A stretch of 64,000 nt of DNA from an uncultured Actinomycetes bacterium (GTDB taxonomy: Bacteria; Actinomycetota; Thermoleophilia; UBA2241). The stretch lies in contig CAVRZA010000001.1 of NCBI GenBank assembly GCA_963725665.1, forward strand, positions 416,001-480,000, written 5' to 3'. Position 1 is the first letter of the stretch. Every line of letters begins with the position of its first letter. A program made the position numbers and the translations under genes. Below the pieces are notes generated by a model that was not told the origin of the DNA, searched no databases, and saw nothing but the letters and a program-made list of their open reading frames with translations. This document shows positions 14,491 to 29,517 of this stretch, piece by piece.

Positions 14491-14859
14491 ATGACCACTG
14501 CATACCTCACCAGTTGGCTGTACGTGGCAGCCTTCATGCTGTCGGGCGTCGTCATGGTCGTGGCCATACTCGCCATCTCGGCCATCGTCAATCCGAGCCA
14601 CCCGTCGGCGGTGAAGTACGCCACCTACGAGTGCGGCATCGAGCCCGTCGGCACGCCGTGGTCGCCGTTCGCCGTGCGCTACTACATCTTCGCCCTGCTG
14701 TTCCTGGTCTTCGACGTCGAGGCCGTGTTCCTGTTTCCCTGGACCCTGGTCTTCCGCGAGCTGGGGACGGCCGGCTTCGTCGAGGTCGTCTTCTTCATCC
14801 TCGTGCTCGTCGTCGGGCTGGTCTACGCCTGGCGGAAGGGGGTCCTGGAGTGGGTTTGA
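14491..14859 (+). CDS. nuoA: NADH-quinone oxidoreductase subunit A
   Basis: [42 protein letters not shown] at 14470. Confidence 0.97.
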
Positions 14860-15413
14860 AGGACGGCCGCCGCTACCCCAAGCTCGAGGACTTCCAGCAC
14901 CCGAACATCATCGTCACCACCGCCGACCTGGTCTTCAACTGGGCACGTTCGCGGTCGATCTTCCCGTTCACATATGGACTCGCCTGTTGCGCCATCGAGA
15001 TGCTCTCGTCGGGTTTCGCGCGCTTCGACATCGCGCGCTTCGGCTGGGAGGTGTTCCGGCCGACGCCCCGGCAGTGCGACCTCATGATCGTGGCCGGCAC
15101 GGTCAACGAGAAGATGGCGCCTGTCCTGAAGCGCCTCTACGACCAGATGGCGGAACCCAAGTGGGTCATCTCGATGGGTGCCTGCGCCACCAGCGGGGGT
15201 CCCTTCTACGACGGCTACAACGTCGTCAACGGGGTCGACAAGATCGTCCCCGTCGACGTGTACATCCCTGGCTGCCCGCCGCGCCCTGAGGCGCTCTTCC
15301 AGGGCATGCTCGAGCTACAGAAGAAGATAAAGACGATGAGCTTCGTGAACGCGGACGGCGCGACTCCTGATGGCGCGGACGCGGCCGACGAGAGCGCGCG
15401 GAGCGCGACGTAG
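14850..15413 (+). CDS. nuoB: NADH-quinone oxidoreductase subunit B
   Basis: [30 protein letters not shown]. Confidence 0.97.
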
Positions 15414-15422
15414 GGCGGCCGC

Positions 15423-15917
15423 GTGGGTCTTGAGATCGGCATCGTGCGGGCGTCCATGGACGAGATCGGGGAGCGTCTGACGGCGGCGTTCGGCGACGAG
15501 CTGAGCGATCTGCGCGTGCAGGAGCCCGACACGCTGGTCTGCCGCGTCGCCCGCGAGCACCTGCACGACGTCGCGCAGCGCCTGAAGGACCTGCCGGAGC
15601 TCGGCTACCCGACGTGCAACTGGGTCGCCGGCGTCGACTTCACGACGCACCTCGAGAGCGTCTACCACCTCTACTCCTGGAGCACCAACAGCTACCTCGA
15701 GATACACGTGGAGATCCCGCGCGACGACGCGCTGTGCGACAGCGTCTGCGACCTCTTCCCAGCGGCTGACTGGCACGAACGAGAGGCGTGGGACATGGTC
15801 GGCATTCGCTACGCGGGGCACCCCGACCTGCGCCGCATCCTGCTCAGGGACGACTTCATCGGTCATCCCTTGCGCAAGGACTACGTCGACCTGATCGAGA
15901 ACCATCCGCATGCCTGA
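15423..15917 (+). CDS. nuoC: NADH-quinone oxidoreductase subunit C
   Basis: WHEREAWDMVGI, GHPDLRRIL, GHPLRKDY. Confidence 0.95.
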   Translation: MGLEIGIVRASMDEIGERLTAAFGDELSDLRVQEPDTLVCRVAREHLHDVAQRLKDLPELGYPTCNWVAGVDFTTHLESVYHLYSWSTNSYLEIHVEIPRDDALCDSVCDLFPAADWHEREAWDMVGIRYAGHPDLRRILLRDDFIGHPLRKDYVDLIENHPHA

Positions 15918-26430: not shown

Positions 26431-26432
26431 CG

Positions 26433-28020
26433 GTGAGCTGGCAGGACCAGGTGGGCTTCCCGCTCCTCTCTGTGATGACCTATCTGCCCCTGGTGGGCGT
26501 GGCGCTCATCGTGTTGTTCGCCAAGGATCGCCCAGGTCTCTACAAGCCGATCTCCCTGGTGACGACCGTGCTCGCCTTCATCCTCTCGGCCGTCATGCTG
26601 CTGCGCTTCGACACCGGGCGGCCGGGCATGCAGTACGCGCGAGAACGTCGTCTGGATCAAGAGCCTCAACATCCACTACGGCATGGGTGTCGACGGCATC
26701 GCCGCCCTGCTGATCTTCCTCACCACGCTGCTGGGCTTCATCGTCATCATCTCGAGCTGGAACTACGTGAAGGATCGCGAGCGCGGCTTCTTCGTCTCGC
26801 TGCTGCTCCTGCAGACCGGGATGGTCGGCGTCTTCTGCGCCACCGATATCTTCCTCTTCTACGTGTTCTGGGAGGCCATGCTGATCCCGATGTACTTCAT
26901 CATCGGGGTCTGGGGCGGGCCGCGAAAGATCTACGCCGCCATCAAGTTCTTCCTTTTCACCTTCGCCGGCAGCGTGCTGATGCTGGTCGCCATCATCGCC
27001 ACGGTCTACTACGTGAAGGGCCAGACCGGTCAGCTCACGTTCAACATCCAGGAGCTGACGCGGCAGGTCTATCCCTACCACCTGCAGTTCTGGGCCTTCC
27101 TGGCCTTCTTCGTGGCCTTCGCCATCAAGGTACCGATGTGGCCGCTGCACACCTGGCTGCCCGACGCGCACGTCGAGGCGCCCACGGCGGGTTCCGTGAT
27201 CCTGGCGGGAGTCCTTCTGAAGATGGGCGGGTACGGCATGCTGCGCTTCAACCTGCCGATGTACCCCGACGCCGCCGTGACGTTCGTGCCCTGGGTGATC
27301 GCTCTGAGCGTCATCGCCATCCTGTACGGCGCCCTGGTCTCGATGATGCAGAAGGACCTGAAGAAGCTGGTGGCTTACTCGAGCGTGAGCCACATGGGGT
27401 TCGTGACGGCAGGGATCTTCGCTGGCATCGCGCTGGTAGGCAACAGCGCCGGTATGGAGGGGGCCATTCTGGTCATGTTCAACCACGGCATCCTCACGGG
27501 CGCCCTGTTCCTCATGGTCGGCTTCCTCTACGAACGCACGCACACGCGCGATATCGCGGCCATGAGCCAGCTCGCCAAGCCGCTGCCGGTGCTGGCCGGC
27601 TTCTTCCTCTTCTTCACCCTGGGGTCGCTCGGGCTGCCGGGCCTGAACGGGTTCGTGGGCGAGTTCCTCAGCCTGCTGGGCCTGTTCAACTACTCGCGCG
27701 CCACGGCGGCCATCGCCGGCATCGGCGTTATCCTGGCCGCCGCCTATCTGCTGTGGATGTTCCAGCGCGTACTGTTCAACGACCGCGGTGACGCCGACGT
27801 CATGCCGGACTTCCACCTGCGCGACTTCTCGCTGCGCGAGATCGCTTCGGTGGTGCCGCTCGTCGTGTTCGCCGTCTGGGTCGGCGTCTATCCCCAGCTC
27901 TTCCTGAACCTGCTGCACGTGCCGGTGCAGCAGATCATCGACAAGGTGACGCCGTCGCTCGCCGGCGGCCAGAGCCACGGGCTGGCGCAACTGTTCGACG
28001 TCACGAGAGGGCTCTTCTAG
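26433..28020 (+). CDS. nuoM: NADH-quinone oxidoreductase subunit M (one frameshift near 26640, probably an assembly error)
   Basis: N-terminal frame VSWQDQVGFPLLS...GMQYA, then ENVVWIKSLNIHYGMGVDG...HTWLPDAHVEAPTAGS in the next frame. Confidence 0.93.
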
Positions 28021-29517
28021 ATGAACAACTCGCTGACGCTGATCCTGCCCGGCCTCGTCGTCGCCGTCGTCGGCCTGGTGCTCTTCCTCGTCGAGGCGTT
28101 CGTGTCGGCCAAGCGCGCGCTGGCCTACATCGCCGCCGCCGGCCTCGCGGTCGCCGGGGTCCTTGCCGTGCTGCAGTGGCTTCAGCTACGTGGCAGCCTC
28201 GCGCTGCCGCTCCTGCGGCAGTGGAAGGCTGCCACAGCGGGCTTCAACCAGATGGTCGCCCTCGACCGTTACGGCCTCTTCTTCACGGTCCTCTTCTGCG
28301 CCGTGGGCATCGTCACCATCATGCTCTCCGATCGCTACCTCGATCTGCATCGTGCCTCGCGGGGCGAGTTCTACGGACTACTGCTTCTGATCGTCTCGGG
28401 CATGATCGGCATGGCCATGGCGACCGACACCGTGACCCTGTTCGTGTCGTTCGAGCTCATGTCGCTGCCGACCTACGTCATGGCCGGCTACCTGCGCGGC
28501 TCGGAGCGGTCGGGCGAGGCCGCCATCAAGTACTTCCTCAACGGCGCCTTCTCGTCGGCGATCCTCCTCTTCGGCCTGGCCCTGCTGTACGGTCTCACCG
28601 GCGCCACGAACTACAGCTCGATCGCCGCCGGGTTGCAGCACCTCGAGAGCGGCAACGGCGCGCTCGTCGTCGCGCTCGTTCTGGTCGCGGCCGGCTTCGG
28701 CTTCAAGATCTCGGCGGTGCCCTTCCACGGCTGGGCGCCCGACGTCTACGAAGGCGCCCCGACGCCGGTCACCGCCTTCATGGCCGTGGGGGTCAAGGCG
28801 GGCGCCTTCGCCGGCCTGCTGCGCTTCTTCACGGTGGCCGTGCTGCCCGCCTGGGACGTGTGGTCGAACATCCTCATCGTGCTCGCCGTGCTCACGATGG
28901 TGATCGGGAACGTGCTCGCGCTGCCGCAGCGCAACCTCAAGCGTATGCTCGCCTACTCGAGCATCGCCCACGCCGGCTACCTGCTGCTGGGGGTGATCGC
29001 GGCCGGCCGCCAGCCCGAGGGCAACGGCGGCAGCGCCGTGCTCTTCTACCTCGCCGCCTACGCGTTCATGAACCTGGGCGCCTTCGGGCTGCTGGTGCTC
29101 GTCCGCAACCGGCGTCCTTTCGGCTACACGCTCGATGAGATCGCCGGGCTGTGGCGCAGCATGCCCTGGACGTCGATCGCCATGGCGGTCTTCATGATCT
29201 CGCTCACCGGCATCCCGCCGACCATCGGCTTCTGGGCCAAGTTCTACATCTTCACGGCTCTTATCGACGCCCACCTGACCTGGCTCGCCATCGTGGCCGT
29301 GGTCATGGCTGCCGTGTCCTCGTTCTACTACCTGCGCGTGGTCTGGTACCTCTTCTTCCGTGAGCAGGAGGGCGAGCAACCGCTGCCGGTCGCGGCTACG
29401 ACCGGGACGGCCGCCGCCGTCGTCGTCACGGCGCTCGGCGTGCTCCTTGTGGGTCTCTACCCGTCCTGGCTGCTCGACGCGGCGCAGAGTGCGCTGCGTC
29501 TGGTGATCGGCGGATAG
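28021..29517 (+). CDS. nuoN: NADH-quinone oxidoreductase subunit N
   Basis: EAAIKYF, FKISAVPFHGWAPDVYEGAP, KRMLAYSSIAHAGY. Confidence 0.97.
   Translation: MNNSLTLILPGLVVAVVGLVLFLVEAFVSAKRALAYIAAAGLAVAGVLAVLQWLQLRGSLALPLLRQWKAATAGFNQMVALDRYGLFFTVLFCAVGIVTIMLSDRYLDLHRASRGEFYGLLLLIVSGMIGMAMATDTVTLFVSFELMSLPTYVMAGYLRGSERSGEAAIKYFLNGAFSSAILLFGLALLYGLTGATNYSSIAAGLQHLESGNGALVVALVLVAAGFGFKISAVPFHGWAPDVYEGAPTPVTAFMAVGVKAGAFAGLLRFFTVAVLPAWDVWSNILIVLAVLTMVIGNVLALPQRNLKRMLAYSSIAHAGYLLLGVIAAGRQPEGNGGSAVLFYLAAYAFMNLGAFGLLVLVRNRRPFGYTLDEIAGLWRSMPWTSIAMAVFMISLTGIPPTIGFWAKFYIFTALIDAHLTWLAIVAVVMAAVSSFYYLRVVWYLFFREQEGEQPLPVAATTGTAAAVVVTALGVLLVGLYPSWLLDAAQSALRLVIGG

Follow-up and report, generated by a model that had tools for sequence, protein, structure and literature searches.

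The 64,000-nucleotide stretch analysed here (hereafter the window; positions 416,001 to 480,000 of contig CAVRZA010000001.1, from an uncultured Actinomycetes bacterium placed in the Thermoleophilia) carries a nuo operon at 14491-29517 of its + strand. The operon probably encodes a membrane-bound complex I whose head, a Bfu trimer of the Nfn/Stn type, is stitched covalently into the subunit NuoI, and which would pump protons while passing electrons from NAD(P)H (possibly also from ferredoxin) to menaquinone. From the way its genes are fused, the head very likely forms a fixed part of the membrane complex; that both NADH and NADPH serve as donors is the option we rather favour, and a coupling of ferredoxin is proposed tentatively. 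The genes and gene parts concerned are as follows.

14491..14859, + strand: nuoA (Oxidored_q4, E 2.7e-37)
14850..15413, + strand: nuoB (Oxidored_q6; NF005012, 242 bits), with a GTG start inside the end of nuoA and the N2 ligand positions kept
15423..15917, + strand: nuoC (Complex1_30kDa, E 7e-40)
15910..17130, + strand: nuoD (Complex1_49kDa, E 2.2e-93)
17130..18410, + strand: nuoH (NADHdh, E 9e-111), with a GTG start overlapping the nuoD stop
18410..19168, + strand: first head gene, the N-terminal half of NuoI fused to a NuoE/BfuC-like [2Fe-2S] protein, 252 amino acids (aa) (TIGR01971; 2Fe-2S_thioredx at residues 104-245)
18410..18631, + strand: within it, the first half of NuoI (residues 1-74 of the fusion), an N-terminal helix and the first CxxCxxCxxxCP motif (Cys52, 55, 58, 62)
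19165..21072, + strand: second head gene, F, a BfuB/HydB-like NuoF of 635 aa (Pfam domains, Cys motifs, PDB matches, tree)
21077..23674, + strand: third head gene, G, a BfuA (NfnA/StnC-like) protein fused to the C-terminal half of NuoI, 865 aa (Pfam, NCBIfam, Cys motifs, PDB matches)
23252..23452, + strand: within it, the second half of NuoI (G residues 726-792), with the second CxxCxxCxxxCP motif (Cys740, 743, 746, 750; TIGR01971, NF004537)
23674..24183, + strand: nuoJ (Oxidored_q3), its ATG overlapping the G stop
24180..24500, + strand: nuoK (Oxidored_q2)
24535..26430, + strand: nuoL (NF005141, 746.6 bits)
26433..28020, + strand: nuoM (TIGR01972), with an apparent one-base frameshift near 26638-26640
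28021..29517, + strand: nuoN (TIGR01770, 424.8 bits)

By Pfam and NCBIfam the gene order is A-B-C-D-H, then the three head genes, then J-K-L-M-N, in DNA whose G+C content stays at about 65-69% across the operon. Adjacent genes overlap in their start and stop codons at seven junctions (A/B, C/D, D/H, H/fusion, fusion/F, G/J and J/K), and the reading frame is unbroken through both fusion junctions. The arrangement exceeds chance by far, because gene ends abut or overlap and because it recurs in independent assemblies. An earlier note on this DNA, made from the letters alone, had bounded the operon exactly by the nuoA start and the nuoN stop, and its parts list (Nuo subunits, a NuoE-like protein, a HydB-like NuoF and a NuoG/GltD protein) and its placement of the head genes after nuoH are both recovered by the Pfam and NCBIfam models. 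Its idea that an 11-subunit operon captured a trimer agrees with the order A-B-C-D-H-(head)-J-K-L-M-N, which fits an insertion. Taken as a whole, its interpretation is partly supported.

The evidence that carries our interpretation is the fate of NuoI, for which a separate gene is absent from the operon, the subunit being divided between the first and third head proteins. Residues 9-74 of the 252-aa fusion match positions 3-66 of TIGR01971 (the NuoI model, 121 positions) with 45 bits and residues 726-771 of G match positions 69-114 of the same model with 55 bits, while positions 102-162 of NF004537 (204 positions) match the C-terminal piece of G as far as residue 792. Searched against PDB, residues 1-97 of the fusion have only NDUFS8/TYKY/NuoI proteins as top matches (best E 5.8e-12); along plant TYKY (7a23_D) the first half spans residues 76-141 and the second half residues 147-187. 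When E. coli NuoI was compared by tblastn with the whole 64 kb, its residues 23-78 fell at one half and residues 60-134 at the other, the ferredoxin-type domain of F being matched as well, and no further NuoI, E, F or G homologue was found anywhere in the window.

The cysteine motifs tell the same story. NuoI is otherwise a single polypeptide with two CxxCxxCxxxCP motifs; here the motifs lie on two proteins, one in each half, their eight cysteines together amounting to two NuoI clusters' worth. G contains three motifs of the CxxCxxCxxxCP type, of which those at 665 and 708 are 32 residues apart, a spacing that fits the ferredoxin-domain pair of HydA/NuoG; the motif at 740 is therefore left without a partner within its own chain. 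The 11 free-standing relatives examined, all from other phyla, have two motifs each and lack this third one; among the 12 loci examined (of 80) it occurs only in a Thermoleophilia protein of the locus L002, described below. The cysteines and the proline of the orphan motifs are invariant, in 11/11 aligned sequences for the first half and 14/14 for the second. The three-gene head evidently sits inside nuoI, in frame at both ends, and the split NuoI, as read from sequence, is a far stronger sign that head and pump are physically integrated than anything in the earlier note. Downstream of the second half, G residues ~793-865 (window 23453-23674) comprise invariant residues to ~807 and then a tail of variable length rich in Ala, Pro, Gly and Glu.

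Both fusions are widely conserved. The 252-aa fusion has 2895 database matches, and among the matches listed 120/120 cover at least 92% of it, the N-terminal half included, with 61-100% identity; the named homologues among them are metagenome-assembled genomes (MAGs) of Thermoleophilia. The best-kept part of G is residues 560-800, with 185 matches at E <= 1e-3, and here 120/120 among the matches listed are at least 80% identical. In all, both fusions are present in >100 protein clusters from several sources, the named ones again being Thermoleophilia. At 50% clustering, among 150 matches listed, the match starts within the first 16 residues only in P0080, P0243, P0242, P0246 and P0300. P0242 and P0246 are fragments; P0243 has the full fusion of NuoI half and NuoE over its full length, is 43% identical and represents a divergent second lineage, its own search returning a single close relative (P0390). 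The gene context recurs too: a 3-kb Thermoleophilia contig (L001) has nuoD-nuoH-fusion-F as in the window, the Pfam listings of P0148, P0186 and P0236, which are from other contigs, have NuoJ (and K, L) domains after the C-terminus of G, and in P0300 the C-terminus of NuoH runs into the NuoI half.

The head itself belongs to the Bfu/Stn/Nfn family and not with canonical NuoEFG, as had been claimed before; this is borne out by the bit scores of F and G and by the F tree. F consists, according to Pfam, of an N-terminal thioredoxin-like [2Fe-2S] domain (ligands Cys36, 41, 72, 76), a flavin mononucleotide (FMN) domain, an SLBB domain, an NADH_4Fe-4S domain (N3 ligands Cys479, 482, 485, 525) and a C-terminal 2x Fer4 domain binding 2x[4Fe-4S] (Cys573-583 and Cys603-613). 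In a passage of Schut et al. 2022 (PMC9304861), BfuB proteins are searched for by their FMN-binding, SLBB, NuoF-4Fe-4S and ferredoxin-type 4Fe-4S domains; PF01512, PF10531, PF10589 and PF00037 are all present in F. Solved Bfu-type B subunits score 861-746 bits against F (7t2r_B 861, NfnB of Caldicellulosiruptor saccharolyticus (Csac) 9bov_B 790, Stn 8oh5_B 768), compared with 415 bits for Thermus Nqo1, 387 for E. coli and 374 for M. smegmatis among canonical NuoF proteins. G runs from a Fer2_4 [2Fe-2S] domain through GltD (Fer4_20 and Pyr_redox_2), a CxxCxC..C motif (Cys614-625), a HydA-type 2x[4Fe-4S] pair (Cys665-675 and Cys708-718) and the second half of NuoI to the tail. Its best solved relatives are Csac NfnA (9bov_A, 625 bits), StnC (8oh5_C, 543) and an archaeal NfnA (9n5u_A, 526), and its residues 21-747 align with residues 5-699 of 9bov_A.

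A quick maximum-likelihood tree of F was built from 80 sequences: that of the window, E. coli NuoF and 78 taken from the 80 scan loci; matches with <330 aligned residues, among them L001, L003 and L032, were left out. The window and two Thermoleophilia sequences linked to pyruvate oxidoreductase (POR) form one group with a Shimodaira-Hasegawa-like approximate likelihood ratio test (SH-aLRT) value of 100, and this group lies inside a Bfu-type set of 75 rows (SH-aLRT 99), apart from five canonical NuoF-like rows. The Nuo-Bfu sequences of Geobacter and Calditerrivibrio, which come from previously predicted complexes I with a Bfu head, are a clade of their own (SH-aLRT 99), apart from the window. 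It therefore seems likely from the tree that the head was captured independently of the Geobacter-type Nuo-Bfu, though the approximately unbiased test does not reject a tree joining the two clades (p 0.124).

The stretch of the GltD domain that would form the NADPH site (a Rossmann and Arg-rich segment, the second nucleotide site) is near-identical to that of the NADPH-dependent Csac NfnA, and we take it to be the binder of the 2'-phosphate. Together with the glycine motifs for flavin adenine dinucleotide (FAD) and NADPH and with the cysteines of the GltD clusters, the stretch shared with Csac NfnA is invariant in 14/14 aligned family members. These observations bear on the possibility that the operon codes for a plain NADH:menaquinone oxidoreductase of odd gene layout, the GltD and F ferredoxin-type domains being structural relics. 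NADH-driven quinone reduction requires no second donor, and the solved Bfu members described in part of PMC11829005 vary in which sites carry clusters and which carry zinc, which shows that some head sites are dispensable. The invariance of the FAD/NADPH motifs, GltD cysteines and Csac NfnA stretch, and the presence of all cysteines of the extra F domains, indicate selection on those very sites, and we regard relics as an improbable explanation.

The remainder of the enzyme would be a conventional quinone module and pump. Pfam and NCBIfam recognise the seven membrane subunits A, H, J, K, L, M and N along with NuoB, C and D. Aligned to 2fug_4, NuoD keeps the residues equivalent to T. thermophilus Nqo4 His38 and Tyr87, which we take to line the quinone site, so the B/C/D module with its His and Tyr residues is as it had been described; NuoB, compared with T. 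thermophilus Nqo6, keeps the N2-ligating tandem CC, GAC(A) and GCPP positions. The bit scores of NuoD (Thermus Nqo4 341.6, cyanobacterial NdhH 340.6, M. smegmatis 293.8) are ambiguous as to its affinity when PDB scores alone are considered. The membrane arm had been called complete: all seven subunits are indeed there, but nuoM is frameshifted and the arm is complete only if this is an assembly error. The first ~68 codons of nuoM, from the GTG at 26433, are in one frame and the rest (26640-28020) in another; the open reading frame (ORF) at 26683-28020 matches TIGR01972 only from model position 74, the N-terminus being in the other frame, and no slippery site was found at the frameshift (window 26433-26700). 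The frameshift is either an assembly error or real decay. NuoH is long, at 426 aa (17130-18410), with a ~60-residue C-terminal extension past the family domain that includes a hydrophobic stretch.

From these parts a route for electrons can be proposed. The two halves of NuoI would fold into a single 2x[4Fe-4S] NuoI domain; in the NuoI fold the clusters each draw ligands from both motifs, and both chains would thus ligate each cluster. Docked on NuoB, D and H as usual, this two-chain domain would anchor the head. NADH would enter at the FMN of F and pass its electrons through the N3-like cluster to the [2Fe-2S] cluster of G. For NADPH the entry would be the FAD of the GltD domain, followed by GltD's two clusters, and ferredoxin may enter at the C-terminal 2x[4Fe-4S] of F, via the NuoE-like cluster. 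According to the passages of PMC11829005 on solved Nfn, electrons there leave FAD by the two GltD clusters, cross three large-subunit clusters and reach the FMN/[4Fe-4S]/[2Fe-2S] site, from which they pass to NAD+ and, by way of the C-terminal B-subunit clusters, to ferredoxin. For Stn, part of PMC10482914 describes the pair of clusters facing the FdhF-like domain as a non-functional branch, a dead end. In G, the FdhF-like domain is gone and the second half of NuoI starts ~7 residues past the last motif of the HydA-type domain, and this branch is therefore proposed as the exit: the distal HydA-type cluster would deliver electrons to the two NuoI clusters and on to N2 (NuoB), menaquinone and the L/M/N pumps. 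The ligands of the BfuC-type (NuoE-like) [2Fe-2S] cluster, of the N-terminal [2Fe-2S]/Zn-site of BfuB and of its two C-terminal clusters are present; as all Bfu core ligands are there, confurcation would be possible. The most likely physiology would be that NADH and NADPH, possibly with reduced ferredoxin, are oxidised by the quinone pool while protons are pumped.

The direction of electron flow is also touched by a ferredoxin-linked catabolic cluster upstream (window 2165-8542); a weak promoter-like candidate lies upstream too.

2165-4213: indolepyruvate/2-oxoacid oxidoreductase-like (IOR-like) protein
5011-6588: AMP-forming ligase with AMP-binding_C_2
6644-8542: aldehyde:ferredoxin oxidoreductase (AOR)
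14336..14365, + strand: weak sigma-70-like promoter-like site, ~125 nucleotides 5' of nuoA

The promoter scan, covering 13400-30600, returned 1 sigma-70-like match with 1.7 expected, which is not above chance. The IOR-like and AOR genes fit an organism needing ferredoxin re-oxidation. Downstream, at 36338-37099, lies a gene for a UbiE/COQ5-family methyltransferase (Ubie_methyltran, 58.7 bits); its product may be a quinone methyltransferase, which is no proof of menaquinone synthesis. An enzyme running mainly in reverse, with electrons driven by the proton motive force from menaquinol into the head, where NADPH and/or reduced ferredoxin would be formed, had been suggested by the earlier note as well. 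Complex I is reversible, and the head carries both a ferredoxin-type exit and an NADP site. The ferredoxin-reducing AOR and IOR-like catabolic genes nearby, however, suggest a surplus of reduced ferredoxin and not a need for it, and a lithotrophic context is not seen in the window. Reverse operation as the main mode accordingly strikes us as quite improbable.

It is very unlikely, given the split NuoI, that there are two enzymes here, namely a soluble transhydrogenase of the Nfn/Stn kind beside a headless complex I, with genes that merely happen to be adjacent. Free-standing E-F-G(GltD) trimers are frequent in other phyla. A headless complex I would nevertheless need NuoI, and the only NuoI sequence of the window is split across two head proteins, both of them conserved fusions, the extra Cys motif being the one missing from all 11 free-standing relatives mentioned above. 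An assembly or gene-calling artefact can hardly be the cause, for although the nuoM frameshift points to an imperfect assembly, >100 clusters of several sources, and L001, have these fusions as well, and the frames are unbroken at both junctions.

Several points weigh against the covalently integrated NAD(P)H:menaquinone oxidoreductase proposed here. AlphaFold models of the single chains lend it no help: for the fusion (11-row alignment) the NuoE domain is confident and residues 14-86 have a predicted local distance difference test (pLDDT) score <50, and for G (14-row alignment) the mean pLDDT is 44, which is uninformative. Among the 80 genome loci kept, a single one (L001) has the arrangement, a count that is a lower bound. 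With a quinone as acceptor all three donors run downhill, and bifurcation or confurcation is thermodynamically unneeded; NADPH and ferredoxin are predicted as substrates from conserved motifs. The canonical NuoI receives electrons from the His-ligated N5 cluster. Since the N5 position links to the GltD clusters in solved Nfn, by this analogy the geometry must depart from that of the canonical enzyme. Finally, the nuoM frameshift means that the operon could be decaying in this genome.

A paralogous head cassette is found in a second setting. In three Thermoleophilia/Actinomycetes MAGs (L002-L004), which hold the closest relatives of F among the kept loci (65-70% identity), it lies in POR operons. 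The order in L002 (1703-9811) is porC, porD, porA, a NuoI-like half fused to a NuoE-like protein, F, and a 1056-aa protein made up of [2Fe-2S], GltD, 4Fe-4S motifs, a third motif (the other NuoI-like half) and then PorB. The half-ferredoxins of L002 match NuoI models best (TIGR01971 positions 35-63 and 69-120), and they are homologous to those of the window, one sharing 52% identity along a 73-residue stretch across the third motif and the other aligning from residue 27 onward; the POR version is without the first 26 residues, the equivalent of the NuoI N-terminal helix. A 'split PorD' as the origin of the halves was ruled out, as an intact porD lies at L002 2314-2703 and the halves match NuoI models best. 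We infer that the cassette moved, with its NuoI-derived connector, from a nuo context into a POR operon, in a direction that we propose. In L002-L004 the cassette would tie the oxidation of 2-oxoacids firmly to the reduction of NAD(P)+, and the presence of the same connector in a pyruvate oxidoreductase suggests a general plug-in principle.

A more far-reaching proposal, doubtful as we consider it, would make the split NuoI a portable two-chain Fe-S connector that plugs an Nfn-type bifurcating module into varied Fe-S enzymes. Within the nuo operon the result would be a proton pump bearing a four-way redox hub, at which NADH, NADPH, ferredoxin and quinone meet; this hub could work by confurcation, from ferredoxin and NAD(P)H to menaquinone, or run backwards. 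The cassette would later have moved into the POR operon, fused to PorB, and the whole would be a living example of the acquisition of an N-module. The arrangement bears on how complex I acquired its N-module and on whether Bfu modules truly sit on proton pumps. Evidence on both has so far come from gene neighbourhood, and a split connector fused to the head proteins is much stronger. The head would hardly be functional without the pump, nor the pump without the head, and the enzyme would provide a respiratory entry for NADPH that is missing in the canonical complex I.

Other ways of joining these parts were met among the kept loci. In six of them, from Chloroflexota, Planctomycetota and Desulfobacteraceae (L026, L041, L050, L052, L060 and L062), F is fused directly to GltD in ORFs of ~1014-1087 aa, and in 5/6 the next gene encodes a small NuoG-like protein on its own (L026 ends too early). 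The N-terminal extensions of the NuoE-like proteins of L027, L045, L067 and L071 were considered as NuoI halves and ruled out, consisting of an HdrA-like FAD domain and one Cys motif.

With the canonical complex I of 14 subunits, as in T. thermophilus, E. coli and M. smegmatis, the operon shares the quinone-site and N2 positions and all the membrane subunits; the canonical NuoF is without the extra domains, the canonical NuoG ends in a large molybdopterin-like domain and is without the GltD insert, and NuoI is a single chain. The headless 11-subunit complex I/NDH-1 (nuoABCDHIJKLMN) has the same order of non-head genes, but its NuoI/NdhI is intact and it has no flavoprotein head. The head resembles most the NfnABC/StnABC enzymes (Caldicellulosiruptor saccharolyticus 9bov, Sporomusa ovata 8oh5, archaeal 9n5u), which have the same three-subunit make-up, include the best solved relatives of F and G and show the same large-subunit order of [2Fe-2S], GltD and 4Fe-4S clusters. 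Those enzymes are, as part of PMC10482914 describes, soluble tetramers joined by a C-terminal FdhF-like domain of ~450 residues. This domain is absent from G (865 aa, compared with 1172-1178 aa in the solved enzymes, the alignment stopping at 747) and the second half of NuoI stands in its place; the NuoE-like subunit of NfnABC/StnABC is without the first half of NuoI, unlike the fusion of the window. The earlier note had further stated that SfrAB of Geobacter had been proposed as an NADPH input to complex I; a passage on SfrAB does not bear this out and speaks of NADPH/NADP homeostasis.

Closest in concept are the complexes predicted by Schut et al. 2022 (PMC9304861), whose relevant passages describe, besides Por-Bfu and Nfn-Bfu, a Nuo-Bfu made of complex I with a BfuABC head and predicted from genomes, for example that of Geobacter sulfurreducens. 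Por-Bfu resembles L002-L004 in having BfuABC genes within a pyruvate oxidoreductase cluster; L002 differs in that the large subunit is fused to PorB via a NuoI-like half while the other half is on the NuoE-like protein, and the passages on Por-Bfu contain no mention of such PorB/NuoI-half fusions. Nuo-Bfu comprises, in the same passages, 51 sequences from Deferribacteres, Proteobacteria, Planctomycetes and Nitrospirae, the head genes lying midway in a cluster of 14; Actinobacteria and NuoI are unmentioned in these passages, and the supplementary cluster lists of the paper may hold actinobacterial cases. Our literature searches returned no description of a split NuoI or of an Nfn-type head on complex I, and the term 'Nuo-Bfu' in one paper only.

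A Bfu-type head on complex I is thus less new than the earlier note supposed, having been predicted as Nuo-Bfu in 2022. Like the system of the window, Nuo-Bfu has the membrane and quinone modules of complex I, a HydB-like protein (BfuB) replacing NuoF, and predicted menaquinone reduction with proton pumping. In Nuo-Bfu, of which L059, L068 and L075 are loci, the head is in the canonical D-E-F-G-H order, with BfuABC between nuoD and nuoH, while NuoI is undivided and a GltD/NADPH domain is lacking. The operon of the window is the opposite on all three counts, its head following nuoH and interrupting nuoI, so that what is new relative to Nuo-Bfu is an NADPH domain, a head placed within nuoI and a NuoI made of two chains.

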